In this document: positions 3,480-28,824 of the stretch, piece by piece
How the letters are laid out: every line of letters starts with the position of its first letter
Numbering within the stretch: the stretch's first letter is position 1
IMG/VR virus record: IMGVR_UViG_3300026549_000035
Coordinates: 1 to 32,917 of that record
Source of the DNA: a virus
DNA: 32,917 nucleotides
Reading direction: 5' to 3' (one strand)
Notes under the pieces: generated by a model
Databases searched by the model: none
Told to the model about the DNA's origin: nothing
What the model saw: only the letters and a program-made list of their open reading frames with translations
Program-made: the position numbers and the translations under genes

Positions 3480-3850
3480 TTTAACAAAAAAAAATCAAAA
3501 TGTGGAGCTTTCATTATGGGGGCGGATCTGTGGATGTTATGGTTACCCTCACCGCCCAATGCTATGTTTTTTGAGTTTTCCTCTCAAAACTCCTAGCTAA
3601 AAACATAGAAAAGACTGGAAAAAGCCACCCCGCTTTTTTTAGTTGTTTTTTAGGTAAAAACATAGAAATGGGAGGTTGAAAACTAAAAAACTGAGCACTT
3701 TCTTTAAATATTTTTTCTTCTTGAAAAATTTTTGCCGCACTCATAGCCGTATTCTAATAAGTCACCAACACATCCATTATTTATTACTCATAGGGTCTTG
3801 ATGTTGGGTATCCCTCGTATAGTCCTAAAGATGAGGTACCTATCTCCTTA
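3480..3850 (-). ncRNA. Candidate non-coding or leader transcript driven by a duplicated ~90-bp promoter cassette (TTGACT-17-TATACT) at ~3855-3935
   Basis: No ATG-initiated ORF with an RBS. The only ORF (3562..3744, 60 aa) is low-complexity with no SD. Internal direct repeats TAAAAACATAGAAA. Ends in a GGGCGG..CCGCCC hairpin plus a U9 tract. Confidence 0.35.
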
Positions 3851-4000
3851 GAACACTTATAGTATAACACATAAAAGGTAAAAAGTCAATAGTTTTTTGA
3901 AAATTTTTTTCGTTATTTTTTTTAACAGGCACCCGGGCGCAAAGCCTGCGGAAATCCGCAGGCTAAGCACAGAAAGGAGGACTCAAAAATGAGGAGTTAT

Positions 4001-4075
4001 TGGTGCGTATAGTGGGAGTCGAACCCACCTAAACACGATTAAAAGTCGTGTGCATAGCCGCTTTGCTACATACGC
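4001..4075 (-). tRNA. tRNA-Lys, anticodon UUU, with an encoded CCA
   Basis: Acceptor stem GCGTATG/TATACGC (six Watson-Crick pairs plus one G-U). D-loop contains GG. Anticodon stem CACGA/TCGTG with loop CTTTTAA. T-arm GTGGG-TTCGACT-CCCAC. Discriminator A then CCA. Co-transcribed downstream of gene 4127..4492. Confidence 0.85.
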
Positions 4076-5869: not shown

Positions 5870-6162
5870 AAAAAAGGAAATGGATAGGCTATTGCCTACC
5901 CAAATCCTATACGTATTATAAAACAGAAAAAAGAGGAGGAATCTCAAAATCTGCGTAGTATTGGAAAGGAGTTGCCGTCGTCCAGTCCACACTCACTTAC
6001 AACGGCTGTGAGTTGTCTTTGCCTCACTAATTTTTATACCGCAAGGTGGTCTTACCTGACAAGTATCCTGTCTTGTGCGCTAACCCCACGTCGCTTACAC
6101 TTTTGCCACTGCTGGAAGAAGGCTCAATGCTTGCGGTCGAAAGAAGTTCTATCTCTCTTTTA
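5870..6162 (-). ncRNA. Candidate ~290-nt non-coding RNA (unit 2)
   Basis: Promoter TTGACTttttcattaaagtatgtTATAAT at ~6168-6203. The transcribed minus strand contains no AUG. Ends in an 8-bp hairpin GGGUAGGC..GCCUAUCC followed by a U-rich tract at ~5870-5901. Confidence 0.4.
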
Positions 6163-6209
6163 GTGTCTTTATTATAACATACTTTAATGAAAAAGTCAAG
6201 AGATTTTTA

Positions 6210-6565
6210 AAAATTTTTTTCTATCGTGAATGGGGGCAAAAGAGCTGGACTTACATTATCTTCTCAAATGCCGTCGTAATGCCCCCATTGAACGAGAGTT
6301 CCCTCATTGTCGGTCACTCTAAACCCATGCAAGAAGTTCTTTTGCCACTCTAACGCAGGCAAAAAGCTACTCACGTTCAAAAAGCCCCGCGTTGCTACCG
6401 CACTTGTTATTGTTCTTCACTCTTGAAAACAATCCATCTTCCGAGGCAGCGTTGAACACTACTCTGAAAAGTCACCAAGCCCGTTTTTTTTACTACTCAT
6501 GGGAGACTACTGGAACTCCCCTTTGTAGTTCCAAGTTCGTGGCGCCCTCTCCCTTGGAACACTTA
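6210..6565 (-). ncRNA. Candidate ~350-nt structured non-coding RNA (unit 1)
   Basis: Driven by the second copy of the ~90-bp promoter cassette (TTGACT-17-TATACT) at ~6575-6640. Strong stems (GGGAGA..UCUCCC, AAUGGGGGCA..UGCCCCCAUU, CUUUUGCC..GGCAAAAG). Only 13-17 codon AUG ORFs without an RBS. Confidence 0.35.
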
Positions 6566-6663
6566 TAGTATAACACATAAAAGGTAAAAAGTCAATAGTT
6601 TTTTGAAAAATTTTTTTCGTTATTTTTTTAACAAATGCCCGGGCGCGCACTAAGAGTTTTCCC

Positions 6664-7559: not shown

Positions 7560-7790
7560 TTACAATTTTGTAACCTTTTCGTGCTTTAACGTATTAAAGC
7601 GTAGCGGTTTAACGTTTTAGTGTGCTAAAGTACTTTCGGGATTTACCATGTTAGCACTTTAACGTGTTAAAGCGTAACGATTTATTGCTTTAACGCTTTA
7701 GTGCGTGAAAACGGGTCGCGGCACCCAATCGCGACCCGCCGAATGCATAATTATTCATGGGTATGCTTGCATAAATATGCAAAAAAGGAT
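7560..7790. promoter_or_regulatory. Repeat-rich intergenic regulatory region: TTGTAAC direct repeats, multiple GCTTTAAC/GTTAAAGC palindromes, TTGCATAAATATGCAA, and the GC hairpin GGGTCGCG..CGCGACCC
   Basis: Iteron-like repeats read directly from the sequence. Architecture mirrors 9895-10095. Confidence 0.5.
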
Positions 7791-7848
7791 TGAGGTTAAT
7801 TCTCAACCCTTTATAAGTTTGTGTAGCGGTTTGGATTTTGAGGAAAAG

Positions 7849-8250
7849 CTATTTTAACTTTTCCTCAAGCCATGCTAACATTTTTTTACTTTCATCACGC
7901 AAGCGGATTTTTTCAGCTCCGCCATTTTTTTCGCTCTCTCTGGTAACGTAACCAAAAGCATTTACAAAAGCGATATACTCAGCTTTTTCCATAACGTAGG
8001 CTGTGCCGTTTCTGGTAGCGTAAATGTAAAGGTCAGAAGCGTCAAGGTCAAGGTATCTTTCAAGGTCTGTGCCTTTGCAGATAGAAGCCTTTGCGCTTTT
8101 CACTTGGAAGTTAAGAACATCAGCCCCTTTGTCAAATCTCAGGTTATCAGCCTTTAGGATTTCACCTGTTAAATGAAATCTGATTGACTGCTCTGCGTTT
8201 TGTCCGTGATTGCGGTAGTTGTTAAGATAAGTGAAAGTAAATGCTCTCAT
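7849..8250 (-). CDS. Hypothetical protein (133 aa)
   Basis: Start MRAF after AAAGGA. Promoter TTGACAagCCCGGGCtgatgtgcTATAAT at ~8255-8310. Imperfect hairpin terminator at ~7775-7812. Confidence 0.65.
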   Translation of the reverse strand: MRAFTFTYLNNYRNHGQNAEQSIRFHLTGEILKADNLRFDKGADVLNFQVKSAKASICKGTDLERYLDLDASDLYIYATRNGTAYVMEKAEYIAFVNAFGYVTRESEKNGGAEKIRLRDESKKMLAWLEEKLK

Positions 8251-8319
8251 TTTTCGATCGTCCTTTCGTCTTTCGTTAATACTATTATAGCACATCAGCC
8301 CGGGCTTGTCAAGCCTTTT

Positions 8320-8481
8320 TCAAGAAAAAATATAATTTTTCTTGAAACTGTAAAAGGCTTGTTCAAACTGTAAAAGCTCCGACAGAGTGAAACGGCTTGC
8401 GAAATGCTCAGGCGTTTCATCAAACAGGTAATAGCCATTTTTTACCATTCTTTCCACGACATAAATTTTTGATTCTTTCAT
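8320..8481 (-). CDS. Small protein (53 aa; MKESKIYVVERMVKNGYYLFDETPEHF...)
   Basis: Below 60 aa, so absent from the ORF track. RBS GAGAGGAGAA. Extended -10 promoter (acaTGaTATAAT) paralogous to the promoter at 7285-7320. Confidence 0.45.
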   Translation of the reverse strand: MKESKIYVVERMVKNGYYLFDETPEHFASRFTLSELLQFEQAFYSFKKNYIFS

Positions 8482-8545
8482 TTTAGTTTTCTCCTCTCTC
8501 TTTACTATCTATATTATATCATGTTACGTGTCCTATAAACGGGAC

Positions 8546-8950
8546 TTAGAGAGCTACCGCTTCACCTTTTTCAGCTAAAGTGATTGCTTCATATCCAGCC
8601 TTTGTCCATTGGCGGGTATTCTTGGGGTCATCATCAACCAGAACGCCAACCTCACGGATAAAATCAACTTTGCGACCATAACCAACTATGCAGATAAAAT
8701 TTGCAAGTGCAAATTCGGGAATGTGCTTTGCAAGCCAATCAATTTTTCCCGCCTTGCCTGCTTCGTTGCGGGCTTTGGTCAGAATGTAAACCTTGACGCC
8801 TTCAGCGATAAGTCTGCGGACTGTTGAAACGTTCTCAGTGAATGGTTCAAGATTTGCCATAGCTTCACGGCTTGCGGCAGTGTTTTTGTCAGTAGCATAC
8901 GCTTTGTGGAAGTTGGCGAGAACGCCGTCCATGTCAAAGTAGTAAGTCAT
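8546..8950 (-). CDS. HAD-superfamily 5'(3')-deoxyribonucleotidase-like protein (134 aa)
   Basis: N-terminal motif YFDMDGVLANF (DxDGV, typical of NT5C-type nucleotidases). Start MTYYF after GGAGG. Promoter TTGACAtCCCGGGCtgtttggtgTATAAT. Confidence 0.8.
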   Translation of the reverse strand: MTYYFDMDGVLANFHKAYATDKNTAASREAMANLEPFTENVSTVRRLIAEGVKVYILTKARNEAGKAGKIDWLAKHIPEFALANFICIVGYGRKVDFIREVGVLVDDDPKNTRQWTKAGYEAITLAEKGEAVAL

Positions 8951-9093
8951 TTTTCGATCCTCCGTGTCTTTCATTGTCTTAATTATACACCAAACAGCCC
9001 GGGATGTCAAGCGTTTTTTGAAAAAAAATATTTTTTGTTAAAATGCACAAATTGGGAATATAGAATTTGTGCAACATTTAGCGCATTTTTCTC

Positions 9094-9122
9094 TTGACTT
9101 TTGGTGGGAGGTGTAGTATAAT
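9094..9122 (+). promoter_or_regulatory. Plus-strand sigma-A type promoter TTGACT-17-TATAAT driving a ~65-nt transcript antisense to the 3' end of gene 9181..9363
   Basis: TTGACTtttggtgggaggtgtagTATAAT. The transcript has hairpin GGGGCG..CGCCCC and terminates in the 10-bp stem ATAAGCGGAT..ATCCGCTTAT (9160-9184), shared with the convergent gene. Confidence 0.55.
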
Positions 9123-9180
9123 ATTTCGGGGCGCCACGCCCCTGATCGGTGACAAAAAAATAAGCGGATTTGCGATCCGC

Positions 9181-9363
9181 TTATCTGTGCCAGATTTTGA
9201 GGCTTGAAGCATACCGACCGAGGGGATACGTGCGAACCTCTTGTAGTTCAACATAAGAAACTTTGCCGACTTTTGAATTGAAGTAAGCAAGCGCCTCATC
9301 ATAGTTACGGAAAGCCTCATCTTCTCTAAAATTCCAAGTCACTACATAAAACATTTCTTTCAT
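9181..9363 (-). CDS. Small protein (60 aa), member of a 56-65 aa paralog family (with 12185..12355 and 13783..13980)
   Basis: Promoter TTGACAagCCCGGGCttttgatgTATAAT and RBS AAAGGAAAGAGG. Shares the YFN..V..ELK..IW pattern with 12185..12355. Confidence 0.6.
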   Translation of the reverse strand: MKEMFYVVTWNFREDEAFRNYDEALAYFNSKVGKVSYVELQEVRTYPLGRYASSLKIWHR

Positions 9364-9454
9364 TTTTCTTACCTCTTTCCTTTATCTTATGTATACATTA
9401 TACATCAAAAGCCCGGGCTTGTCAAGCCCTTTTATTGGACTTTGTAAAATTTTT

Positions 9455-9622
9455 TTATTTGCTCCAATCAGGGTTGAAAACCACAAAACCGTTGACATTT
9501 TTTGCGACTTCTTCTGCTTTGTCTGCGTTATCAAACGCACCCCAAAACCAGTCAGCACCGTCGCACTCTCTCGCTACGATGTAGGGAAAATCATCGGCGT
9601 AATCAGGCACATTCTTAATCAT
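9455..9622 (-). CDS. Small acidic protein (55 aa; MIKNVPDYADDFPYIVARECDGADWFWGAFDNADKAEEVAKNVNGFVVFNPDWSK)
   Basis: Missed by the ORF track. RBS AAGAGAGGAG. Promoter TTGACAaactcgatctcttggggTATACT, preceded by GGTTACAA..GTTACAA direct repeats. The overlapping plus-strand ORF 9389..9655 is an artefact. Confidence 0.5.
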   Translation of the reverse strand: MIKNVPDYADDFPYIVARECDGADWFWGAFDNADKAEEVAKNVNGFVVFNPDWSK

Positions 9623-9727
9623 TTTTCAAGCTCCTCTCTTAACTTTCTATACTAAGTATACCCCAAGAGATCGAGTTTGTCAAGCATTTTTTGAGATTGT
9701 AACTAATTTGTAACCTTTTGGATAATA

Positions 9728-9856
9728 AAAAAAATGAGGGCTTGCGCCCTCGGTGCTGACTTGCTCTCAGCTGGAACAGAGCTTTGTTTTAAGTGCGCCC
9801 ACCACTCGTAGTGTCGGCTGGTTTTTAGGTGTGCTCTGTTTCTCCCTTCACCCTAC
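9728..9856 (-). ncRNA. Candidate small RNA (~125 nt): consensus promoter, no AUG anywhere in the transcript, classic intrinsic terminator
   Basis: Promoter TTGACTtttataacataatcgtgTATAAT (-10 at 9863-9868). Terminator GAGGGCgcaaGCCCUC plus U8 at 9727-9752. Internal stem CAGAGC..GCUCUG. Confidence 0.5.
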
Positions 9857-9894
9857 AAGTAGATTATACACGATTATGTTATAAAAGTCAAGCA

Positions 9895-10095
9895 TTTTTT
9901 GAAATTGTAACTATTTTGTAACCTTTGCATACCCATGCATAATTATGCATACTTTCGGGATTTAATACTTTAGTGTGTTAAAGTGCATAATTATGCACTT
10001 TATTGTTGTAGCACTTTAACGCGCTAAAATCGGCGCGGGTCGATCGTAGGCGCGCCGCCGAAACAAAGTCCAATAAAATGGACTGAATAATTATG
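9895..10095. promoter_or_regulatory. Palindrome-rich regulatory region: ATGCATAATTATGCAT (perfect 16-bp), GTTAAAGTGCATAATTATGCACTTTA, GCACTTTAACG, TTGTAAC repeats, GC hairpin GGCGCG..GCGCGCC
   Basis: Read directly from the sequence. Shares TACTTTCGGGATTTA and the motif families with 7560-7790. Confidence 0.45.
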
Positions 10096-10117
10096 CAAAA
10101 AAAAATGCGGTCACCGC

Positions 10118-10375
10118 TCAGGGGAAAATCTGAGCGGTGATGTCAACGACAATCCAGCGAGAGCCGTCCTCAGAGAGGGAGCGTTCCCAGACCAAACCGC
10201 AAGGGAGAAAAATGCGGTTTCTGCGTTCCCAGCCTCGAACTGCCATGTCAATGAACAGCTCGAACATCTGGCTCTGAGTGAGACCTTCGAAAAGGCTTCT
10301 GACGAACCACATCTGACCATCGTCAGGAACAAGGCTCAGCAGAGTGCGGTAGTGGTTAAAATCTTTCTTAGTCAT
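10118..10375 (-). CDS. Hypothetical protein (85 aa)
   Basis: RBS AAAGGAGGAA. Promoter TTGACT-17-TATAAT at ~10400-10440. C-terminal codons and the TGA stop are encoded inside the terminator stem CACCGCTCAG..CTGAGCGGTG followed by a U9 tract. Confidence 0.6.
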   Translation of the reverse strand: MTKKDFNHYRTLLSLVPDDGQMWFVRSLFEGLTQSQMFELFIDMAVRGWERRNRIFLPCGLVWERSLSEDGSRWIVVDITAQIFP

Positions 10376-10528
10376 GTTAGTTCCTCCTTTGGGGGGGTAG
10401 CCCCTCTTTCATTGTCTTTATTATAGCACACTCGGGCAAAAAAGTCAATAGTTTTTTCAAAGAAAGTATTCGTCAAAATATACAAATCGGGAATCTTTTT
10501 TGACTGTGAAGTTTGTGCATTTTGCGAA

Positions 10529-10557
10529 TTGATTTTTGCGGCGGGCTGTGGTATAAT
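10529..10557 (+). promoter_or_regulatory. Plus-strand promoter TTGATT-17-TATAAT driving a short transcript antisense to the 3' end of gene 10603..10911
   Basis: The transcript begins AATTTCCGGC and ends at hairpin GGATTAGC..GCTAATCC (10600-10620). The same architecture recurs at 9094 and 12477. Confidence 0.5.
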
Positions 10558-10602
10558 AATTTCCGGCTCTGGCGCCCGGGCACGGTGACGAAAAGAAAAG
10601 GA

Positions 10603-10911
10603 TTAGCAATACGCTAATCCCATTGTTTTCCAATTCAAAATTGAAATTTGATTGCATTTTCTTCCAATTGTCAGAGCCTCTCTTTTAGTATTAACTCTGT
10701 GACTTTTATCAACATAGTAAATACCATTTGAAAACCATACGCCGCAGTTTCCATTATACGCTTTTACTGCGTTTATTGCTTCTCTTGGGCTTGTCGTTTC
10801 AACGCCTTCCGTTGCAACCTGCCAGCCTGTTTTGTAGGTTGTGGCTTTTCCCTTTTTTAAGGTTAAGCCCTCATTTTCTTTAAGTTTCAGAATTGAACGA
10901 ATGTTAATCAT
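10603..10911 (-). CDS. Hypothetical protein (102 aa)
   Basis: Start MINIRS after AGAGAGGAG. Promoter TTGACTtttcgCTCGGGCtgtgcTATAAT at ~10935-10980. Confidence 0.6.
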   Translation of the reverse strand: MINIRSILKLKENEGLTLKKGKATTYKTGWQVATEGVETTSPREAINAVKAYNGNCGVWFSNGIYYVDKSHRVNTKREALTIGRKCNQISILNWKTMGLAYC

Positions 10912-11002
10912 TTTCTTATCTCCTCTCTTTATTGTGTCTTTATTATAGCACAGCCCGAGCGAAAAGTCAAGTGTTTTTTCAAAAAAAATAAAGGGCGTAT
11001 TT

Positions 11003-11272
11003 TTACGCCCATTGTAATTTTCCATCGACTACATAGATAACACTCTCTGCGCCATCGTATTCATCGACATAGTGGTCGGTGCAATTTTCGGGAAGCTCAA
11101 CAACTTTTAACTCAGCGTGAGTTCCATTTACATCTTCCCCTGCTTCTATTGCTGAGATTAACTCAGCATTATAGCGGAGTTCTTCACTATCATGAGAATC
11201 AATTCCAAGGCGGTCTGCCCATTCCTTAGATACGCTAAATCCACCATAGCAAGCATTGACAATTAATTTCAT
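11003..11272 (-). CDS. Hypothetical acidic protein (89 aa)
   Basis: RBS AAGAGAGGAG. Promoter TTGACTtttggatgcgtctatgcTATAAT at ~11285-11335. Stop overlaps terminator GGGCGTA..TACGCCC plus a T-tract. Confidence 0.65.
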   Translation of the reverse strand: MKLIVNACYGGFSVSKEWADRLGIDSHDSEELRYNAELISAIEAGEDVNGTHAELKVVELPENCTDHYVDEYDGAESVIYVVDGKLQWA

Positions 11273-11397
11273 TTTTTTTTATCTCCTCTCTTTATTGTAT
11301 CTTTATTATAGCATAGACGCATCCAAAAGTCAATAGTTAAATTGCACAAAGATGTGATAAGAATTCTGTGCAGATTGACGAATCCGCCCGGGCGCAA

Positions 11398-11544
11398 TTA
11401 ATAAGGCAGATACGCCTTTTTGTGTTTGCGTTCTGCCTTTCTCAGCTTACCTTTTTTTGTATCTTCTACTTTTGGAGCGAAGCCCACAAAAGTCGGTCCT
11501 CTGTGTTTTCTTTTTTCCTCGGTTTTCTTTGTCCTGTGGCTCAT
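11398..11544 (-). CDS. Small highly basic protein (48 aa; MSHRTKKTEEKRKHRGPTFVGFAPKVEDTKKGKLRKAERKHKKAYLPY), likely nucleic-acid binding
   Basis: Start after GGGGAG. Promoter TTGACAtttgaggggttttgtgcTATAAT. The 79-aa ORF-track version starts upstream of the promoter and is rejected. Confidence 0.5.
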   Translation of the reverse strand: MSHRTKKTEEKRKHRGPTFVGFAPKVEDTKKGKLRKAERKHKKAYLPY

Positions 11545-11587
11545 TTTTATCTCCCCTTTCATTGTCTTTATTATAGCACAAAACCCC

Positions 11588-11881
11588 TCAAATGTCAAGA
11601 GGTTTTTCAGAAAAAAGTTCTTTTTCTTCAATTTCATAGTCTAAGCCATCAAGATGGAAGAAAAAAGCCTTCTTTTTTAATAAAATTTTAAGCCATTCTT
11701 TACCATATAAGTTTTTTAAACTCAACCATTTAGAATAAATTGAATAATAGCTTGTATAATTTTCACTTAATCCCTTGTTATCAATAAGCCATTGGATTGC
11801 GCTTGCATGGCTGTCACAAACCGCTACAACCTCAGTAGTATCATCAAAACCGTAAGTTTCTGTAATTGTAAATACTGTCAT
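11588..11881 (-). CDS. Hypothetical protein (97 aa), co-transcribed after gene 11912..12097
   Basis: RBS AAAAGGAG. Last codons L-D-I then stop are encoded by the next promoter's -35 (cTTGACAtttga). Confidence 0.6.
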   Translation of the reverse strand: MTVFTITETYGFDDTTEVVAVCDSHASAIQWLIDNKGLSENYTSYYSIYSKWLSLKNLYGKEWLKILLKKKAFFFHLDGLDYEIEEKELFSEKPLDI

Positions 11882-11911
11882 TTTTATCGCTCCTTTTGGA
11901 TAGCTGAGGGG

Positions 11912-12097
11912 TTAACTCTCAGCCCACCAGTCAGCAGTTTTCATCTTTGCGATTTCGCCCTCTAAGCGGTCAAGGCTCAGATTGTTGTCGGGATAGCTTT
12001 CGCATTTTCTTGCGAAGTCAATAGTTTCGGGAGCTTCATGTCCGAACATTCTGATTACTTCGGTCAACATTTCTTCTCTTGTTCTTCTTTCTGTCAT
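11912..12097 (-). CDS. Hypothetical protein (61 aa)
   Basis: Promoter TTGACAagcaagggtttttgtgtTATAAT and RBS AAGGAAAGGAAG. Stop inside hairpin GGCTGAGAGTTAACCCCTCAGC. Confidence 0.6.
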   Translation of the reverse strand: MTERRTREEMLTEVIRMFGHEAPETIDFARKCESYPDNNLSLDRLEGEIAKMKTADWWAES

Positions 12098-12355: not shown

Positions 12356-12476
12356 TTTGTTTTCCTCTCTTTCCTTTTTTCTGTCTTTATTATAGCATGA
12401 AAAGTCTTTAAAGTCAATAGGCAAAGTGCACAAATCGGGAGCGCCCGAGCGCATGAAAGTTTGTGCATTTTGCCTA

Positions 12477-12505
12477 TTGATTTTGTGTGGGGATTGTGCT
12501 ATAAT
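12477..12505 (+). promoter_or_regulatory. Plus-strand promoter TTGATT-17-TATAAT, divergent from the promoter of gene 12185..12355. The inverted repeat TGCACAAA..TTTGTGCA (12427-12467) lies between the two -35 elements
   Basis: Transcript ATTTCCGGCUACGCC... ends at hairpin GGGCTGA..TCAGCCC (12542-12559), which is also the terminator of the convergent gene 12553..12903. Confidence 0.5.
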
Positions 12506-12552
12506 ATTTCCGGCTACGCCGATCGTCCTCGAAAATTAAAAGGGCTGATTGC

Positions 12553-16030: not shown

Positions 16031-17078
16031 ATGATAAAACTTGATTATTCTTTAACTTCTCCAGAAGATAGAAATAAATTAGTAAAAAAAATACTCGAAG
16101 AAAATCCTGACCCAGGAGAAAAATATCTAGAAATTTTGGCTGATTACCTTATCTTCGCCATGGAGAAAGAAGAAAAAAAGAAAAAGAAAATTCTTACTGA
16201 AAATAGGATGACTACCGTAAATAAGAGAGAAACATCTTTTGAAGGTCTTGTCGCTCAATTGGAAAATGGCGAAGATGGTATATATAATTTAATAACAAAC
16301 AATAAACAAGTAATATTTCAACCAAAAGTAACAATAACAAAAAAAGATTTAGCAGACATTCCCCCTCTTCGTGAATTGCGCGAGACTATTAGTAATTGGG
16401 AAACAAAATTAAAAACGGCTGAAGGTAAGGATCGTTTTATTATTAAAAAGGCGCTGATAGAAATGCGCAAAGACCAATACATAATAAAAAATTCTTATCG
16501 ACAACCAATTATCCCAAATAAAATAACAAGGTCTTCTAGTTATATCCATTTAGATGATAACACTAACGCATTTGATGAAGAGGGGTATCCTATTTCTGAA
16601 GGATTTTCCTTAATGAATCCAAAAGTTTGTGAAGCTATTTTATGCAACTATTCTCGATTAAAGCAAGATGCGGAAGGAAAGTTTGAAGGCGATACTTGGT
16701 ATATAATCTATGATTTTGAAAATCTTTGCGAAAAAGCCTTAGAAAAATATCCTTTATATATGCGCTTAGTCGAATATAAAATTGATGGTATGCAAAACAT
16801 TGATATTTAGGTTTAGCTTCAATTAGAGTTTGGAATTAAACATAGCGTAGAATACATCTCAAGTTTATGGCGCAATAAAATTCCTAAATTAATTGCGTCC
16901 GCAGCTGAAGATGAATATTTAGACTGGTATTATTTAAATATTGCTAAAGGAAAATATAAAAAATGTAGTCGATGCAACGAAATTAAACTTGCGCACAATA
17001 AATATTTTAGCAAAAATAAAACCAGTAAAGATGGTTTTTATAGTATATGTAAAAGTTGTCGAAATAAGAAAAAAACTT
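16031..17078 (+). CDS. Hypothetical protein. A 259-codon TAG-free body, then tandem in-frame TAG-GTT-TAG (16808, 16814), then an 88-codon C-terminal zinc-ribbon tail (CSRCNEI...CKSCRNKKK) ending at TGA
   Basis: The frame stays open through both TAGs and encodes a plausible CxxC...CxxC domain. The overlapping ORF 16941..17279 in another frame has no RBS. Readthrough depends on TAG being a sense codon. Confidence 0.55.
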
Positions 17079-17146
17079 GACATTGGGCAAAAATTCCAAA
17101 TTAAGGCTAGTTATTTATTATATTTTAATGAAAAGGAGGAATTTTT

Positions 17147-17908
17147 ATGCCTAGTGATGGCAAACAATATTATTGTGAAAAATGTAATAGAACAATGGCT
17201 GCCGAATAGTTTTATTCTTCAAACAATTTGGAGAAATATCCTAACGACGGCAAATTTCCTATGTGCAAAAAATGTATGACAATGCACGTAGACAATTGGA
17301 ATCCAGATAGTTATATGTGGATTATTCAAGAAGCAGATGTTCCATATATCCCAGAAGAGTGGAATAAATTAATGGCTTCATATGCGAAAGATCGTAATAA
17401 AGTCACTGGTATGACTATAATTGGGCGATATCTTTCTAAAATGAAATTAAAACAATTTAGAGATTATCGATGGAAAGATACCGAATTTTTACAAGAGCTT
17501 GCGAAATCTAAAAGAGAATAGATTATGAAGGAGCAAGGATATGATGCTCAATAGATTGCGCTCGCAAATGAAAGAGCTTCTTTCGAGGTCCCTTAGAATA
17601 TTGCGATTCCTGACCTTGCGGCTGAGCCTGTTAATCCGTTCCTTGCGTCTGGAACAGAAGATTATTTTGCAGATTAGTCGGGCGCAAGTGATGATGATAT
17701 TGATTTAACAGACGAAGATAAACTTTATCTTCGTTTAAAATGGGGAAAAACTTATAAGCCAGAGGAATGGGTAAAACTTGAATAGTTATATAATGATATG
17801 ATGAATTCATATGATATTCAAGGAGCAGGACATGAAGATAATCTTAAACTTTTATGTAAAACATCTCTTAAGGCAAATCAATTAATTGATATTGGGGATA
17901 AATCTTAA
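17147..17908 (+). CDS. Hypothetical zinc-ribbon protein (~253 aa) with five in-frame TAG codons (the first at 17204)
   Basis: RBS AAAGGAGG. CxxC..CxxC motifs (YYCEKCNRT...MCKKCMT). TAA stop at 17906-17908, immediately before the intron-like element. Confidence 0.55.
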
Positions 17909-17914
17909 TCTATG

Positions 17915-19010
17915 TTCCCATAAAACTCTCTTAATTGCTGGAAACTCTTAAAGCATTATAAACTACATAGGAAATCTTTTTTAAGATTAAACTAGAATGT
18001 TTGAAAATTATAATGATATATAGACAATCAGCAGCCAAATTATTTAAAAAAGGAATGATCAAAAATAATGTTTAAACAATATTATAATACACCATACGAT
18101 ATTTATGAAGATGGTAGATGTTTTAGTCATTTATCAAATAAATTTTTAACGCCTAAAATGTCTGCTAAATATCCATCTTATAATTTAACTTTTGAAGGCA
18201 AAAAACGTTAGGTAAAAGTGCATCGGATGGTAGCAGAAACTTTTATTCCAAATCCAGAAAATAAGCCAATTGTAAATCATATGGATGGCGATACACATAA
18301 TTTTCATGTAAATAACTTAGAATGGGTTACTTTTAAAGAAAATAATTAGCATGCTTATAATACTGGATTAAGAAAAAATGGTAATCAAACAATTAATAAA
18401 TATATAAGTAATTTACCTAATGAAGAATGGACTGATATAAAAAATTATCCAAATTATTTAATCTCTTCATATGGACGTATTATGAATAAAAGAACTAAAA
18501 GATTATTAAAGCTTTATATAAATCATAATGGATATTATAATGTAAATTTATGGAAAAATAATAAAGGAAAAACTTTACAAGTTCATCCTTTAATTTATTC
18601 TAATTTTACAAAAGATTATGATTTAAAAAACTATGTTATTAATCATAAAGATGGTAATAAACAAAATAATCAAATTTCTAATTTAGAAAAAATTACTTAT
18701 CAAGAAAACAATTTTCATGCTAGCTATATAATAAAGACACATAAACAAGAAAAACCTGTTTATTAGTTAAATGATTAGTATGAAATTATTACATCATTCC
18801 CTTCCATTGCATCCGCATAGCGTATAACCGGCATCTCAAATATTAGTAGAGCCATAAAAAAACAAGGTAAAGCTGGCGGTTATTATTGGAAATTTAAATA
18901 AAAGGTTCAACGACTATCCTAAATGGAGTAGGATACAAGCGTATCCGAAATGGAGAGTATTTATTTTATAGTTTGTAAATAAATAAAGATATAGTCTGAC
19001 CTTTATTGAA
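17915..19010 (+). mobile_element. Group I intron-like element carrying an HNH homing-endonuclease ORF. It has a 5' motif shared with two other elements and 3' ribozyme core R (GGTTCAACGACTATCC) and S (AAGATATAGTCTGACC)
   Basis: R and S elements at ~18903-19001. 5' element AACTCTCTTAATTGCTGGAAACTCTTAA at 17917. Homologous to the elements at 19775-20213 and 21577-22700. Exon junctions not resolved. Confidence 0.45.
18068..18766 (+). CDS. HNH homing endonuclease (~232 aa) with in-frame TAG at 18209 and 18347
   Basis: Motifs [40 protein letters not shown] and [17 protein letters not shown] are canonical HNH (HNH_3-like). RBS AAGGAA. Confidence 0.8.
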
Positions 19011-19048
19011 AAATAAAGAAAAAGTTTAGCGAACTTTAAAACAAAAAA

Positions 19049-19510
19049 ATGGTAGAAGGTTTCCAAAAGATGTCAAAAGTTTATGATTAGCTTATGAAGT
19101 CAGGCAAATTTACTGCAGCTTAGAATAAAGCTGAATCTGGTGAATATGTTGATTCTGTAGGTGAATTAGTAGCTATTTGTGAAAAAGATGGTTTTATTCC
19201 ACGTTATTATTTAGGAGAACCTAATGATAAAGTAGATTAGACTATTATTGATATGAAACGTTATACTCGTACCTTAATTACTGAAGAAACCAATCTTGGT
19301 AATCTTATTGAAGAAGCTATTAAAAATAACCAAAAAGAAGATGAAGAAGAACGCAATTCTAAGAATACTGATACTGGATTATTAGATGTTGAAGAATTAG
19401 AAGAACAATTGCGTGATGAAGACTTTGAAGAGTATAGTGAATTTTTAGATAATGAAGAGGCTAGTGATGCTGACCTTTTAAATTTCTTAACTGAAAATGG
19501 AGGTTAGTAA
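19049..19510 (+). CDS. Putative small terminase subunit (~153 aa, acidic C-terminus) with four in-frame TAG codons
   Basis: Immediately upstream of the large terminase, whose RBS is embedded in its end. The weak RBS of this gene suggests coupling or a splicing relationship with the upstream intron-like element. Confidence 0.4.
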
Positions 19511-19512
19511 TT

Positions 19513-19774
19513 ATGGCTTTACAAGATTTATTAGATATTAATACTAAACGATAGAAAATAGGTTTATCTGAAGAGCGCATTGAAGCTATAAAACCTGCGC
19601 TCAGGAAGTATATTGCGTTTTGGCGAGAATACCCAGACCTTTTTATTGATTTTTTAGTAAGAGGTCCTCGAACAGAAGTAAAAGAAGGAGAATTTCATTT
19701 CTATTTTTATTAGAGAGTTTTTCTTCGTTGTGTTATGCGACATTAGTATGTATATGCCGTATTCCCTCGTGCGT
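19513..19774 (+). CDS. Large terminase subunit, exon 1 (N-terminal ATPase segment up to the Walker A region ...MRHQYVYAVFPRA)
   Basis: RBS GGAGG. Two in-frame TAG codons. The reading frame closes at 19804. The exon end is approximate. Confidence 0.6.
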
Positions 19775-20213
19775 CAAAAAGTGGCGCCAATATTATTTTT
19801 CACTAATTGTGGAAAATTTTGGACAAAACTTCTCTAATTGTGGGAACTCTAAATTCATATGAATTATGAACAAGAGAATCCAGAGTAAATATAAAAGAGG
19901 AGTATGTTTAAATATAAAATTAGATAGTAGTAGTATTACAAAATGCTGCAAAGGGAAATTAAAAACTATAGGTGGTTTTATATTTAAATATGCTTAATTT
20001 TTATAAATCTTTAACGACTATCCTGAAAAAGTCTCCGAGGGATAATAAGTAGAGGCAATAGGAGTAGGGCGCAAGCAAATGGCGTGGGTGAGAGTCCCTT
20101 AAATCGAAAAGAGAAGATTTATTATATTTTATAATAAATGTGAGATAGTCTATTCTTATAGGAAACTATAAGCAGTTCATAAGAGAACGTAATGGAAGTT
20201 GCGATTCCATTAG
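19775..20213 (+). mobile_element. ORF-less group I intron interrupting the large terminase gene
   Basis: 5' element AACTTCTCTAATTGTGGGAACTCTAAATT (19826). R-like TTTAACGACTATCC (20012) and S-like GAGATAGTCTATTC (~20150), followed by P9-like hairpins CTTATAG..CTATAAG and TAATGGAA..TTCCATTA. Exon 2 resumes in a different frame (...DSKSFLSVMALMVRAILYPRANLFVTSGGKEQ). Boundaries approximate. Confidence 0.55.
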
Positions 20214-21574
20214 AATATTAAGACAGTAAATCATTTTTATCTGTTATGGCATTAATGGTTAGAGCAATTCTTTATCCTAGAGCTAATTTATTTGTTACCT
20301 CAGGAGGAAAAGAATAGGCTGCGGGTATCTTAAAAGATAAAGTAAATGAAATATGCACTTTAATTCCTGCACTCGATAGAGAAATTGACCGAAGAAGAGG
20401 TAAAACCCTTGAAGGTAAAGACTATTGTAAATATGTTTTTAGAAATGGGTCTACTTTAGATAATATTGCGGCGAGAGAAAGTTCTAGAGGTAAACGTCGA
20501 CATGGCGGGCTTGTAGAGGAGTGCGTTGGTGTTGATGATTAGATTTTACGAGAAGTAATTATTCCTGTTATGGCAATTCCTCGTCGTTGTATGGATGGTA
20601 GCACATAGGAAACTGAAACATTAAATAAAAGTTAGGTATTTGTTACTACTGCTGGATATAAAGGAACTTATCCATATGAGCGTTTAATTGGTTTTTTAGT
20701 GCGTATGGTTACCCAGCCAGAACGATGTGTAGTTATAGGTGGAACATGGCGATTACCAGTAGAAGTTGGATTACAAAGTAAAACTTTTATTAAAGACCAA
20801 AAAGATGAAGGAACCTTTAATGAAGCTTCTTTCGAACGTGAATATGAATCACGTTGGACTGGTGATGTAGAAGATGCTTTCTTTAATGCTGATATGTTTA
20901 ATAGAAATCGTATTTTAAAACAACCTGAGTATGAAGCTTCTGGTCGTTCTAGTAAAAATTAGTATTATATTATTTCTGTTGACGTAGGTCGTAAAGGCTG
21001 TGATACTGTATGTTGTATTTTTAAAGTATCTCCTTAGCCACAAGGACCTTCTTTAAAATCATTAGTTAATATTGAAATTATTAGTAATGAACACTTTGGT
21101 GACTAGGCTCTTGAATTAAAGAAATTATATTATAAATATAATGCAAGAAGAATTGTAATAGATGGTAATGGACTTGGAATTGGCTTAATTGATTATATGG
21201 TTAAACCTTCTATAGACCCAGAAACAAATGATGTTTTGCCTGATTTTGGAGTATATGGCGGAACTCAAGATGATGCGGCGGATGAATATAAAAAATATAG
21301 AACATCTGACTGTGAATAGGATGCTATTTATATTATAAAAGCTAATGCTCCAATTAATACAGAAGCACATGCTAATGCTTAGGTAAACTTGTCTTCTGGA
21401 AAAGTAAAAATGTTAATTGACGAACGTGATGCTAAAATAAAATTATTAGGAACTAAAGTCGGTCAAAATATGAAACCTGAAGAAAGGTCAATTTATTTAA
21501 AACCATTTACATTAACTTCCATATTAAAAGAGGAAATAGAATTCATTGTTTCCCTATATAGAAATATATAGTAA
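20214..21574 (+). CDS. Large terminase subunit, exon 2 (rest of the ATPase domain plus the C-terminal RNase H-like nuclease domain), with ~12 in-frame TAG codons
   Basis: Nuclease motifs YYIISVDVGRKGCDTVCCIFKV and RIVIDGNGLGIGLIDYMV. Ends TAG-TAA at 21569-21574, followed by terminator-like hairpin CTCTAAcugcGGGaaaCCCcTTAGAG plus a T5 run. Confidence 0.65.
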
Positions 21575-21576
21575 AA

Positions 21577-22700
21577 AAAACTCTCTAACTGCGGGAAACC
21601 CCTTAGAGTTTTTCATACCGCGGTATTATAGTGATATAATACGCAGCAGATATTATAATAGATATTAGATGGTAAAAATTGAAAAAATTGGGCAATCCGC
21701 AACCAAGATACTATTTTAAATTTTATTTATTATTGAAAGGGGAGTTCTGAATTATGTTTGTACCTTTAATAATAAATAATAAGACAACTCAATATTTAAT
21801 TTCTGATATTGGAGAAATTAAAAATATAAAAACAAATAAAATTTTAAAAGGAACTATTAGAAATGGATATTAGATGGTAAAATTAACAATAAATTCATAG
21901 AAAAAAGATTTTTTAATACATAGATTAGTAGCAACAACTTTCTTAGAAAATCCTTTAAATTTACCATAGGTAAATCATAAAGATAAAAATAAATTAAATA
22001 ACGCAGTATCCAATTTAGAGTGGGTATCTATTTAGGAAAATATGCTTCATCGAAGTAAAAATCTATTTATAGATAAGAAAATAAGAAAAAAGAAAGAGAA
22101 AATTATTCTTAATGAACATTGGCGTCAATATAAAAATAGTAATTATTGGATTAGTGATACTGGGAAATGTTATAATCAACAAACTCAATATTTATTATCA
22201 CCCATTAAATCTGGTAATTATTATAAATATTGTTTTTCTATAAATGGAAAGAAAAAATCTGCGTTAATTCATAAATTAGTTTATAGTTTATTTAAAGATG
22301 ATTATGATGAACAAAAACAAATTAATCATATAGATGGTGATAAATAGAATAATTCATTAGAAAATTTAGAATTAGTTACTAATCAATAGAATGTATTACA
22401 TAGCTATTATATTTTACATAATAATATCCATTAGATAGGGCAATTTGACACATAGAACAATTTAATTACTATTTACGATAGTATGAGTGCGGCCGCTCGC
22501 GCAATTAATGGTTCAGTAAGTGCTATTAGTTAGGTTTGTGCGGGAAAAGCTAAAACTCATAAAGGTTTTATTTGGAAAAAAATAGTATAAGGCTCAACGA
22601 CTATCCGGAAGGAGTAGGCTTTTTGCCGAAATGGGAGTCCCTAAACAGATAATGCTGTAGGTGAAGATATAGTCTGAACATTAGTTGAAAAACTAAGATA
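21577..22700 (+). mobile_element. Group I intron-like element carrying a tandem HNH endonuclease ORF. 5' motif AACTCTCTAACTGCGGGAAACCCCTTAGAG and 3' core R (GGCTCAACGACTATCC) and S (GAAGATATAGTCTGAAC)
   Basis: R and S elements at ~22595-22690. Homologous to the other two elements. Whether it splices an exon or is a degenerate intergenic intron is unresolved. Confidence 0.45.
21754..22590 (+). CDS. Tandem-HNH homing endonuclease (~278 aa) with ~9 in-frame TAG codons
   Basis: Two HNH modules (IHRLVATTFLENP...VNHKDKNKLNNAVSNLEWV and LIHKLVYSLF...INHIDGDKQNNSLENLELV). RBS AAAGGGGAG. TAA stop at 22588-22590. Confidence 0.7.
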
Positions 22701-22907
22701 ACGTTATTTTGGATGAATCTCAGAGAAGAAAATGAAGGCACCAATATTATTCTTAAATAGGCTAATAAAGGTATTAAAAAGGATAAGTTTTCAGCTTTTG
22801 AATATGGTTTATATTATATAAAAGTAGAAGAAGATAATAAAAAGAGAAAAAGAAGATTTAATGCTAAAGATTGGATGATGTTTAATTAATAGAAAAGGAG
22901 AGGTTAA

Positions 22908-23265
22908 ATGCGAGCTTCTAGAGGAGAGATCAAGATAGAGGAGATACTTCGTGATGCAGGATTACCTTTTAAAATGGAATATAGTTTTCCAGAATTAAAA
23001 AGTGAAAATGGCAGACCTCTTCGTTTTGATTTTGTTATATTTGATGATGATGGAAATATTGATTTTATTATAGAATTTTAGGGTAGACAGCATTATGAAG
23101 CAAGTCAAAAGTTTGGTGGAAAAAGGGGCCTTTATCAATAGCAACATAATGATAACCGCAAACGGAGATTTTGTGCATTACATGGGTTTACTTTAATTGA
23201 AATCCCTTATACAGAAGAAAATTTGATTAATTATGATTATATAATGCACAGAGCAGGTTATTAAA
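22908..23265 (+). CDS. Putative endonuclease-like protein (~118 aa; D..D..IEFQG signature), with two in-frame TAG codons
   Basis: RBS AAAAGGAGAGG. Motif FDFVIFDDDGNIDFIIEFQGRQHY resembles a PD-(D/E)XK-type core. Assignment tentative. Confidence 0.4.
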
Positions 23266-23289
23266 TGTTTAAGAAAGGAGGTATATGTT

Positions 23290-24984
23290 TTGGATATGGA
23301 TCATTTATCATCTAATGAAAATCTTTTTTTAAATAGTGAACAACGACAAGCACGTATTTTTAGTAAAGGATTTGATATGCTTTCAAGTAATAGATATATA
23401 GATTATCGAACAGCAGATAATAACTTTAGTAAAATTAAAGTTGGAGTTAAAAATTTAGAAGATGCTGTTTTAGAATTAGGAGAATTAAGAAAAACAATTC
23501 CACAATCTCCTTATTATAATAAAAAAGAATTAATGAAAGCTATCTTAAAAAATGATTATAGAAAACTAAGAGAATTTTCTAGATTTTTTTATAAAATAAA
23601 TGGTATTTATTCAAAACTTTGTCAATATATATCTTTTATGTATCGTTATGATTGGTATATTGTTCCAGAGATATTTGATGACAATGTAAAAGAAGAAAAA
23701 GTTTTAAAAGATTTTTCTAAATTATTAAATTATTTAGATAATAGTTATATTAAAAAGATTTGCGGCGAAATGGCTTTAAAGGTTCTTATAGATGGGTGCT
23801 ATTATGGTTATTTAGTAGAATCAAATGATTCAATTATGATTCAAGAACTCCCCGCAGATTTTTGTAGAACTAGATATTCTGTAAAAGGTATGCCGGCAAT
23901 TGAATTTAATATGGCTTTTTTTGATACTTTTAGAGATCTTAATTATCGAATGAGAGTTTTAAATTTATTTCCAAGTGAATTTAAAAAGGGATATATCTTA
24001 TTTAAACAGGGAAAATTACAACCTGATTATTAGGATTATCCTAGTTAGTTAGGCTTCCAAGAACGTTCTGGAGGTTGGTATTTACTTACTCCTGGTTCTG
24101 CGTTTAAGTTTAATTTAAATAATAATGATATTCCACCCTTTATAAATATTATTCCTTATTTAATTGATTTAGACTCTGCCCAAGACTTAGATAGACGTAA
24201 ATAGATGCAATAGTTATTAAAAATTATTATTCAAAAATTACCACTTGATAAAAATGGAGAATTAATTTTTGATGTAGATGAAGCAAGAGATATTCATAAT
24301 AATGCTGTTGCAATGCTGTAGCGAGCTATTGGAGTAGATGTTTTAACTACTTTTGCAGATGTTGAAAGTATTGATATGTCAGATAAAAATACTACAACTA
24401 CAAGAGATGACTTAGCAAAAGTTGAAAGAACAGTTTATAATGCCGCTGGTATTTCAAAAAATGTTTTTAATACAGAAGGAAATCTTGCTTTAGAGAAATC
24501 TATTTTAGAAGATGAGTCTACAGTTAGAAATTTATTGTTATAGTTTATAGTGTTTTTTGACAGAATAGTTTAGACTAAAAATTCTAATAAAAAGAAATAC
24601 GCTTTTAGATTTTATATGTTAGAAACAACTCAATATAATTATCAGAATTTATCTAAAATGTATAAAGAACAAGCTTAGATGGGACATTCAAAAATTCTCC
24701 CTCAAATTGCTTTAGGTCATTCTTAGAGCTTTATTTTAAATACTGCTTATTTTGAAAATAACGTTTTACACTTAACTGAATTAATGTTACCTAACTTATT
24801 AAGTTCAACAATGAATTTAGCAGATTTATTGGGTAAAAATGAACAAAATAATAATAACAATTAGCAAAAGAAAACAGGAGGACAAAATAAATAGGCTTCT
24901 GATAAACAAGAAGCGGGTCGTCCAGAAAAAGCTGATGATGAAAAAAGCGAAAAAACAATTCAAAATAAAGAGTCTATGAATTAA
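23290..24984 (+). CDS. Putative portal protein (~564 aa) with many in-frame TAG codons
   Basis: Position between terminase and scaffold. Size. RBS AAAGGAGG, with a probable TTG or ATG start at 23290-23296. TAA stop at 24982-24984. Confidence 0.55.
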
Positions 24985-24995
24985 GGAGGGTTATA

Positions 24996-26570
24996 ATGAA
25001 ACATACTAGTGTATTAAAATTAAATTCTCCGATTGAATTTATTGAAAGTTCAAAAATAAGTCCTTTTGTATCAAAAGTGCAAATAAAGGTTTGTTATGTT
25101 GGAGAAGAACCAAATAGAAATCATTGTGTTATTACTAAAGATGTTGCAAAAGAAATGGCTCCTAGTTTACGAGGATGTCCAATTGTAGGATTTTATAATG
25201 AGTCTACTGGAGATTTTGAAGAGCATAACAAGTAGATTACTATTTCAAATGGAGAATGGCGAATTACTGATTCAACTACTCCTTATGGTTTTATTGATTT
25301 AAATGCAAAAATTTGGTTTGCTACCTATATTGATGATAACAAAGTTGAAAGAGAATATCTATGCACTGAAGGATATATTTGGGATCATGCTTATCCAGAA
25401 GCAAAAAGAGTTTTAACAAATGGTAATAATCATTCTATGGAATTTGATGAAGAAACTCTTGATACTACCTGGTCAAAAGATTAGAATAAAAGACCTCAAT
25501 TTTTCATTGTAAATGAGGCACTTTTATCTAAACTTTGTATTTTAGGAGAAGATTATGAACCTTGTTTTGAGGGTTCTCAAATTACAGCTTTTTCTTTAGT
25601 TGTTGATAAATCATTTCAAGAGAAAATGTATTCAATGATGAATGAAATAAAAGAATTATTAACAGAAGGAGGAACGAAAGTGTTTAATACATATGCAGTT
25701 GAAATTGGCGATGCTCTTTGGTCTGCTCTTTATAGATATATTGAAAGCACCTACCCAGATGAACAAAGAGACGGGTGTTCAAAATATATAATTGAGGGCA
25801 TATATGAAGAAGGCGGTCAAAAATTTGCAATTTTAAACGACCATTTAAATACAAAATACTATCGTTTAAACTTTTCTATTACTGAAGGAGAAGGATTTTC
25901 TGCTTAGGGCGATCTTATTGAAGTAACTAAAAGTTACACCCCTGCGGCCGAGGCTCAATTCTCCGCAGCTGAAGTTGAGACATATATAAAAGAATATGTC
26001 AAGAAAAAAAATGAGGACAAAAAAGATGAAAAAGATAAAAAGAATTCTGAAGATTCATCAGAAGATAAAGGAAAATCTGAAGATGAAGATAAAAACAATG
26101 AAGGTTCTTCTGAAGATGATGACGATGAAGATAAGAAAAAGAAAAAGTTTTCTTATAATTCTTTAGAAGAAATTCCTGAATATGTTGAACTTTAGAACAA
26201 CTTTTCTAATCTTAAATCCCAAGTATCTAATCTCAATAGCACTATTGAGAATTTAAATAGCGAACTTGCTACTTTACGTGAATTCAAGCTTAAAGCTGAA
26301 CGTAAGGAAAAAGAAGCCAAGATCGCTGAATTCTATATGTTGTCTGACGAGAGTAAAAAAGATATTCTTGAGAATATTGACAATTATTCTCTTGATGATA
26401 TTGAAGCAAAACTTTCAGTTATTTGTTTCCGTAATAAAGTGAGCTTTAAAAATGATGAAGAAAGTGCAGGAAATCAAACCACTTATTCTTTAAATGGAAA
26501 TGAAGAAGAGGATCTTTCTATTCCAGCTTGGGTAAAAGCCGCTTTAGATACTGCTAAAACTTTAAATTAA
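24996..26570 (+). CDS. Putative scaffolding or prohead-core protein (~524 aa; acidic low-complexity linker plus a C-terminal coiled coil), with in-frame TAG codons
   Basis: RBS AAGGAGG. D/E/K-rich tract (KKNEDKKDEKDKKNSEDSSEDKGKSEDEDKNNEGSSEDDDDEDKKKKK) followed by heptad-like NLKSQVSNLNSTIENLNSELATLREFKLKAERKEKEAK. Confidence 0.5.
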
Positions 26571-26590
26571 TAAAGGAGGATATTTGAACG

Positions 26591-27616: not shown

Positions 27617-27634
27617 TGAAAGGAGAGAAGAGTA

Positions 27635-28741: not shown

Positions 28742-28756
28742 TAAAATATAACGGTA

Positions 28757-28794
28757 AGGGGGAGCTGGGGATATTCCCCTCTCTCCCTTTTTTC
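28757..28794 (+). terminator. Intrinsic terminator after the capsid gene
   Basis: Hairpin GGGGGAGCTGGGGAtattCCCCTCTCTCCC followed by TTTTTT. Confidence 0.6.
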
Positions 28795-28824
28795 ATTTTA
28801 ATAAAGAGATAAAGGAGAAAAAAC

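Follow-up and report, generated by a model that had tools for sequence, protein, structure and literature searches.

Here, we describe module A, a candidate small RNA (sRNA) gene on the minus strand at positions 9728-9856 of the viral DNA IMGVR_UViG_3300026549_000035 (positions 1 to 32,917 of this IMG/VR record, a stretch of 32,917 nucleotides (nt) that is hereafter called the window), and our comparative analysis indicates that it is quite probably a genuine functional non-coding RNA gene. The explanation that accounts best for the observations, and which we favour, is that module A is an independent early-region gene for a structured non-coding sRNA, carried on an accessory cassette of a phage with a recoded genetic code. 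An earlier note on this DNA had proposed an sRNA at this position, and that proposal is supported by the lack of a conserved open reading frame (ORF), by a promoter that is the odd one out among its neighbours and by compensated stems in a homologue found in a related contig, L007. The predicted transcription unit is made of the following parts:

9863-9891, minus strand: sRNA promoter TTGACT-17-TATAAT, sigma-A/sigma-70-type, 11 of 12 consensus matches (-35 element TTGACT at 9891-9886, -10 element TATAAT at 9868-9863, spacer of 17 nt)
9841-9856, minus strand: predicted 5' end and unpaired purine-rich tail GUAGGGUGAAGGGAGA
9775-9840, minus strand: core domain, with stem P1 (9833-9840 with 9775-9782) around A-rich internal loops and hairpin P2
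9797-9818, minus strand: hairpin P2, variable
9755-9771, minus strand: hairpin P3, GCUGA-GAGCAAG-UCAGC
9751-9736, minus strand: intrinsic terminator GAGGGC-GCAA-GCCCUC, -12.7 kcal/mol, followed by A and U8 (9734-9727)

The promoter, the textbook terminator with its U8, the stem CAGAGC/GCUCUG and the roughly 125 nt free of ATG had all been read here by the earlier note, and each was recovered in our analysis: no ATG occurs on the minus strand across 9862-9728, and the stem was found at the position of P1 with pair probabilities of 0.85-1.0. With the transcription start placed by its distance to the -10 element, the predicted RNA is ~122-129 nt long with a core of ~107 nt, and on the minus strand the -10 element is followed by GUAGGGUGAAGGGAGAAACAGAGC...GCUCUGUUCCAGCUGAGAGCAAGUCAGCACC, then by the terminator hairpin, A and U8. 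The GC content of module A is 52%, against ~39% in the surrounding region. The 129-nt RNA folds with -41.7 kcal/mol, compared with -32.6 +/- 3.6 in dinucleotide shuffles (z = -2.57, 3 of 200 shuffles folding as well), and pair probabilities are ~0.8-1.0 for P1, P3 and the terminator hairpin. Promoter-like and terminator-like sites each number 20 in 8000-12000, against 7.3 +/- 3.2 and 4.0 +/- 2.0, respectively, in shuffled sequences.

Minus-strand genes with near-consensus sigma-A-type promoters occupy the window from 1 to ~16000, and a script scan of the window found ~33 minus-strand promoters that match the consensus at 10 or more of 12 positions. In nearly all cases a Shine-Dalgarno sequence and then a start-codon ORF, 31-190 amino acids (aa) long, come 24-52 nt downstream (62 in one case and 82 in another). 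The promoters without such an ORF are that of module A, at 9891, and those at 6595, 6199, 3889 and 1916, plus one at 125 at the window edge. Module A contains no sense-strand ORF of at least 25 aa, and no reading frame on either strand is common to the window and L007 copies, even with TAG read through: the sense frame opened by TAG read-through meets TGA stops in L007, and the antisense frames differ between the two copies by many non-conservative replacements. The 5' tail is Shine-Dalgarno-like with no start codon after it, and is the best-conserved segment between both variants.

Conservation of the predicted structure was observed in the L007 copy (L007:3061-3167), which has diverged to 77% identity over 97 nt. 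This copy occupies a different intergenic gap, has its own promoter (TTGACT-17-TATACT) and no terminator of its own, and continues into a structured module, module B, which ends at a terminator; given its own promoter, its other site and its fusion 5' of module B, module A is not tied to a neighbouring protein gene. Comparison of the two distinct sequence variants, plus one 1-nt variant, showed that 18 of 18 modelled base pairs are standard in both, with five double-sided changes and none broken. P1 keeps 8 of 8 pairs with one double-sided change (A-U to G-C), P2 has five modelled pairs with two such changes (C-G to U-A and A-U to U-A), and P3 has five pairs, also with two (C-G to U-A and U-A to C-G), reading GUCGA-GAGUAAG-UCGAC in L007 with the loop GAGYAAG conserved. 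In a control in which the 3' partners were slid by 1-3 columns, only 22-42% of positions paired and 0-1 double-sided changes were seen. P1 and P3 were also predicted independently by single-sequence folds of each variant. Paired changes make up 10 of the 23 differences between the variants and the remainder lie in P2 and linkers, while the 5' tail (AGGGUGARGGGAGA), the A-rich internal loops inside P1 (ACACCUAAA and CUUAAAAYAAA) and the P3 loop are nearly invariant. The single polymorphism among the window-type copies, in L012 and L018, changes the 3' arm of the terminator from GCCCUC to GCCCUU, and since a G-C pair thereby becomes G-U, pairing is kept on the sense RNA strand only.

The module A unit forms an exact 208-bp period bounded by a 40-nt direct repeat, the copies of which are 95% identical, and the boundaries of this cassette and the promoter that follows it are:

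9887-9926, minus strand: direct-repeat copy 1, promoter-upstream element AAAGGTTACAAAATAGTTACAATTTCAAAAAATGCTTGAC, left cassette boundary
9679-9718, minus strand: direct-repeat copy 2, right cassette boundary and upstream element of the promoter at 9683-9655
9683-9655, minus strand: promoter that drives the 55-aa gene at 9622-9455

Related contigs, ~20 in number, were retrieved through exact matches to the proteins that the flanking 55-aa and 85-aa genes encode, and the cassette is present in 5 of the 16 that span the site. L003, L006, L012 and L018 carry the 211-nt promoter-RNA-terminator unit with 99.5-100% identity, and 11 other spanning contigs lack it; L019 runs from repeat copy 1 straight into what follows copy 2, so that exactly the cassette is missing. 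Homologous recombination between the 40-nt promoter-upstream repeats, as read from these junctions, adds and removes the 208-bp cassette, which marks module A as an accessory rather than a core gene. That module A can be dispensed with and is exchanged rapidly is in keeping with an accessory part in host takeover or in counter-defence, and not with a core function.

A covariance search of module A against Rfam, which the earlier note had proposed, matched no family. At the gathering threshold of Rfam 15, the window gave only a tRNA-Lys, at 4004-4075, and the six related loci searched with it gave nothing relevant; with E up to 10, only chance-level miRNA and snoRNA matches were returned for 9600-10000, none of them on the sense strand of 9728-9856, and nothing relevant for L007:3000-3400. 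ARAGORN found no tRNA or transfer-messenger RNA at module A, megablast and blastn found no match to it in GenBank phages, and exact and degenerate DNA patterns run against IMG/VR, JGI metagenomes and GTDB species genomes recovered only L007's own contig. A hunt for homologues through the 55-aa, 85-aa, 60-aa and 102-aa proteins and their clusters reached ~25 distinct contigs and still yielded two variants. Searches with R1, a covariance model built from these two variants, covered the window (filters off) and every fetched locus, among them more distant relatives with 55-81% identical flanking proteins, and turned up neither a paralogue nor a distant copy. With no Rfam match and two variants, module A is a new family of an already known kind, the phage-encoded sRNA.

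On entry of the DNA, the host sigma-A RNA polymerase would transcribe module A as it would the sibling early promoters, probably under modulation by a palindrome array upstream, and transcription would stop at the GNRA-capped intrinsic terminator. The RNA is predicted to fold into a long P1 enclosing the A-rich internal loop and P2, followed by P3 and the terminator hairpin, with the 5' tail unpaired. It would then act in trans early in infection via its conserved unpaired surfaces (the 5' tail, the internal loops and the P3 loop), which may pair with an RNA of the host or of the phage, or titrate a host protein by binding it, and the stems would lend scaffold and stability. If module A is indeed a functional non-coding RNA, a regulator acting by base pairing has close to an even chance, a decoy for a protein or a defence system is a tentative though serious candidate, and something else altogether is unlikely.

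Target prediction, also suggested by the earlier note, was carried out on the phage side by examining both strands of the window for duplexes with the conserved unpaired segments, and the best duplex was no better than those of shuffled sequences. This duplex joins the internal loop CACCUAAAAACCAG with codons of the 55-aa gene at ~9538-9556 (minus strand) over 13 of 14 nt, with -18.3 kcal/mol, against -15.4 +/- 1.5 and a best value of -18.6 for shuffled duplexes, and it is not kept by the L007 variant. The duplex was discarded as evidence on both grounds.

Several points weigh against a functional RNA gene. A convincing target was not found among the window sequences on either strand, and module A is rare and dispensable, being absent from most close relatives as well as from more distant ones. 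The 5' tail resembles a ribosome-binding site and would also fit the leader of a decayed protein gene. Part of the P2 pairing was picked for fitting both sequences, and the covariation as a whole is anecdotal because it comes from two sequence variants only, plus the 1-nt variant.

Taken as such a leader, the tail would make module A a decayed gene cassette, in which the promoter, a Shine-Dalgarno-like GGGAG leader and the terminator were left after deletion of the ORF, still transcribed and functionless. The tail GAAGGGAGA is like the purine-rich leaders of the neighbouring early genes and has no start codon 5-10 nt downstream, the unit is dispensable and rare, and the region recombines frequently, but five compensatory double-sided changes and zero broken pairs over 23% divergence speak against decay, as does the fact that the unit is a GC-rich structured island. 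It is also hard to explain for junk that L007 retains the body of the module with a different promoter, at another site and without the terminator, and we consider decay an unlikely explanation. The same segment could instead be translated from GUG-AAG-GGA-GAA-ACA-GAG-CAC-ACC-UAA (9851-9825, MKGETEHT; MRGETEHT in L007), a micro-ORF that would act via its peptide or via ribosome engagement, like those in sibling modules of relatives, where MRDPPN and MRIRDST are conserved. Both variants leave this frame open, with one K-to-R and one synonymous change between them, and it covers the best-conserved segment of the RNA (2 differences in 27 nt). However, the GUG lies ~5 nt from the predicted start with no properly spaced Shine-Dalgarno sequence, leaderless initiation normally requires a 5'-terminal AUG, and two substitutions cannot tell coding from non-coding constraint. 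The 'synonymous' change is, moreover, half of a compensatory P1 pair (columns 19/84), which points to selection at the RNA level, and translation of this micro-ORF seems to us quite unlikely. Module A and the 55-aa gene share a strand, with module A immediately before the gene, and the internal loop of module A is complementary at 13 of 14 nt to codons of that gene. This raised a cis-acting element as a further possibility, be it a leader or attenuator that adjusts read-through into this gene, or an insulator that is transcribed and separates the palindrome array from the gene's promoter. Yet the terminator is followed at once by a separate promoter for the 55-aa gene, 11 of the 16 site-spanning relatives have the gene with its own promoter where the cassette is absent, and the L007 module precedes a different unit, which together show that module A is not the leader of the 55-aa gene; as the loop complementarity is also within shuffle range and lost in L007, a cis-acting role is very unlikely.

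An RNA mimic aimed at host defence, such as an RNA anti-CRISPR, a pseudo-antitoxin of a type III toxin-antitoxin system or another decoy, would be in keeping with an accessory, rapidly exchanged cassette of the early region, the usual place of counter-defence genes. P3 and its flanks (GUUCCA, a 5-bp stem, ACCGAG) presumably approach the shape of a type I CRISPR repeat, a likeness that we treat as a lead only; any likeness of module A to trans-activating CRISPR RNA or single guide RNA (tracrRNA/sgRNA) and to Cas13 direct repeats is likewise presumed, and is not used as a claim. A scan with one candidate segment, GTTCCAGCTGA-N7-TCAGCAC, for which an exact match was required and the host was not identified, gave 32 scattered single hits in 185,579 GTDB species genomes, close to the chance number, with no array and no credible homologue among them. 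In addition, 9728-9856 contains no tandem or direct repeats, whereas RNAs of the ToxI type are tandem repeats of ~34-36 nt, and L007 has no conserved counterpart of the putative 3' handle; a mimic of this sort seems to us quite improbable. It could also be argued that module A is the antisense partner of a plus-strand peptide gene, in the manner of a type I toxin-antitoxin pair, given candidate ORFs of 25 aa (9734-9811) and 43 aa (9753-9884) on the plus strand and a promoter-like site with 9 of 12 matches at 9697-9726. The ATG of the 25-aa ORF comes 7 nt after this weak TTGTAA-18-GATAAT promoter, so the ORF is possibly leaderless. Both the ATG and the promoter context are absent in L007, where the frame is full of non-conservative changes, no Shine-Dalgarno sequence is present, and neither peptide looks like a typical hydrophobic toxin of type I; we give an antisense role hardly any credence.

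Considered as an independent sRNA gene, module A can be compared with known phage RNAs. Trans-acting sRNAs with their own promoter and intrinsic terminator have been described in phages and prophages, among them lambda OOP, P22 Sar, the prophage-encoded DicF and the anti-sRNAs of enterohaemorrhagic Escherichia coli (EHEC) prophages, and sRNAs have reportedly been mapped in virulent Pseudomonas phages by cappable-seq. To our knowledge, almost all characterised phage sRNAs come from proteobacterial phages and prophages. Like them, module A is a short (~100-200 nt for the class), ORF-less unit that runs from a sigma-70-type promoter to a terminator, and its predicted structure leaves unpaired segments as possible seeds. 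Unlike them, it has no Rfam match in sequence or structure, is not antisense to a neighbour, and is carried by the mobile cassette of a TAG-recoded phage with a presumed Gram-positive-type gut or rumen host. The phi29 packaging RNA (pRNA; Phage_pRNA in Rfam), which is ~174 nt long and made from a strong early promoter in a Firmicutes phage, is an essential part of the packaging motor of small phi29-like podoviruses. Module A resembles it in being early, strongly promoted, structured and non-coding, with a presumed low-GC Gram-positive-type host, but it has no Rfam match, is dispensable among near-identical relatives, and belongs to a large, phAss-1-like phage with a different packaging module.

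With RNA counter-defence elements (RNA anti-CRISPRs and pseudo-ToxI), module A shares its nature as an accessory RNA gene, a promoter of its own, a place in a variable early region and a presence or absence that differs between close relatives; it differs from them in that no similarity to a host repeat or antitoxin was found in the one-segment exact GTDB scan and that it has no tandem repetition. The large phage-associated RNAs GOLLD, ROOL and HEARO and the stable T4 'species 1/2' RNAs are, like module A, phage-encoded and structured with function unknown, and their resemblance extends to the stringing together of modules seen in relatives of the window. Module A differs in that it has no match in Rfam 15 and, with a core of ~107 nt, is far smaller.

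The gap between the 85-aa and 55-aa genes, where the cassette resides, is hypervariable among contigs with near-identical flanking proteins (example hotspot loci are L012:4259-5031, L002:3342-4000, L019:1014-1695 and L007:3029-3375). It is empty in L007, holds module A only in the window, L003 and L006, and modules C and A in L012 and L018; module C alone is found in L004, L005, L008, L013 and L015-L017, modules B and C in L002 and L010, and modules D and C in L019. In relatives, modules are concatenated within single predicted transcripts (A+B, B+C and D+C). Module B, of ~170-250 nt, is widespread, occurs alone in L022, L023 and L029, and is kept out to relatives with a 55-60% identical flanking protein. 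None of the hotspot modules in the related loci has an Rfam match. At least six module combinations in this gap, together with further ORF-less units in the window, indicate that RNA genes are a regular feature of the early region.

Module A is a comparatively supported RNA gene in an uncultured, stop-codon-recoded lineage of gut or rumen phages. The early region of this lineage is a hotspot for the gain, loss and fusion of ORF-less RNA cassettes, which set near-identical genomes apart. A broader reading, which we regard as unlikely, would make module A one piece of an interchangeable, RNA-only accessory toolkit in the hypervariable early-region hotspot of TAG-recoded phages of this lineage. 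Modules A, B, C, D and E would then be shuffled and concatenated like the protein anti-defence genes of other phages, and their RNAs might disarm host defence as decoys or regulators, or reprogramme host translation before the switch to the TAG code. If these RNAs were effectors of host takeover or counter-defence, the idea of an accessory anti-defence island would widen from proteins to RNAs, and they would offer small, portable parts for study. Module A alone, with two variants, is of moderate interest, and would be of more if the hotspot is an RNA-based accessory toolkit.

Two of the sibling modules carry conserved micro-ORFs of 6-7 codons. In module C, a Shine-Dalgarno sequence precedes GTG-AGA-GAY-CCN-CCN-AAY-stop (MRDPPN), which shows third-position variation only across seven contigs, and the Pro-Pro pair in the peptide suggests a ribosome-stalling leader peptide. 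Module E carries ATG-(AGA/CGG)-ATT-(AGG/AGA)-GAT-TCC-ACC-TAA (MRIRDST), with synonymous Arg codon swaps. Neither micro-ORF was found in the window by blastn, and their positions in relatives are:

L012:4378-4398: MRDPPN micro-ORF, also in L002, L004, L005, L019, L029 and L034
L012:3331-3354 and L002:~2575-2600: MRIRDST micro-ORF

The motif CACCTAAA, common to modules A and E, was discarded as a link between them, as it occurs at chance rate (~8 contexts seen, ~7 expected).

The records of the related contigs (STEW18/19, PRJEB21624) are, we assume, those of cattle-rumen studies. In the window, the plus-strand half at 16031-32732 is fragmented in the standard code and resolves into packed ORFs of 156-579 aa when TAG is read through. 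The frame at 23290-24984, with 11 in-frame TAGs, gives a full-length portal protein match (phrog_2739, E 1.8e-72), and that at 20222-21574, with 10 in-frame TAGs, matches the large terminase. The early minus-strand genes are unaffected by this recoding, and the candidate RNA lies in the standard-code early region. A single tRNA, tRNA-Lys(UUU) at 4001-4075, and no suppressor tRNA was found in the window. The nearest GenBank relative by tblastn is phAss-1, a 136-kb human-gut phage that is reported to use TAG for Gln and has predicted Clostridia hosts (PMC10607447). An early half in standard code, a late half in TAG-recoded code and a relative of this kind place the window at the early-late junction of a TAG-recoded, phAss-1-related phage. 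Pfam and PHROGs searches of the neighbouring genes left nearly every early protein an orphan; the two matches obtained, a 5'-deoxyribonucleotidase (8546-8950) and phrog_16527, a family of unknown function (11003-11272), provide no functional clue for module A.

The earlier note had also placed module A between two palindrome arrays, which holds for one side only. The upstream array was found as follows:

~9927-10100, minus strand: upstream palindrome array with TGCATAATTATGCA, the 22-bp palindrome AAAGTGCATAATTATGCACTTT, CTTTAACGCGTTAAAG-like units and the hairpin CGGCGCG..CGCGCCG

On the downstream side there is only the 40-nt duplicated element at 9679-9718, the second full array being 2 kb away at ~7560-7800. 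Every related contig conserves the upstream array, which invariably precedes the promoter-proximal GGTTACAAA element and varies in its number of units; it probably serves the promoter after it as a protein-binding or regulatory region. Both AT-rich arrays of the window (9927-10100 and 7560-7800), the units of which also include GTTACAAAATTGTAAC, have a GC-rich hairpin before them and a strong early promoter after them, and their number of units differs among relatives; they are probably operators or other protein-binding sites, or origin-like elements.

Other ORF-less units were observed on the minus strand of the window. Two paralogous units, X1 (~6562-6215) and X3 (~3856-3500), share an identical 70-nt promoter region with TTGACT-17-TATACT, and their RNAs, for which no Rfam match was found, diverge after the promoter while keeping conserved blocks. 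Their stems look compensatory, with GUUCCAAGG..CUUGGAAC in one against GUUCUAAGG..CUUUAGGAC in the other. A further unit, X2, has the promoter TTGACT-17-TATAAT at 6199-6171, ~290 nt of sequence and a terminator at 5902-5881, and its transcribed part (~6165-5881) contains ACCACCUUGCGGUAUAAAAAUUAGUGAGG, which resembles the module B core of related phages (ACCACCGCAAGGGUCUCAGCGUUGCGGUAUACAAAUGUGAACC). The spans of these units are:

6215-6625, minus strand: X1 with its promoter
3500-3920, minus strand: X3 with its promoter
5881-6199, minus strand: X2

Finally, a family of plus-strand promoters with a conserved 53 nt (TTGAYT-17-TATAAT) was observed at 9074-9126, 10509-10561 and 12457-12509. All three, which are kept in related contigs, sit a short way downstream of an early minus-strand gene and face back into it, so that they would give rise to antisense transcripts.

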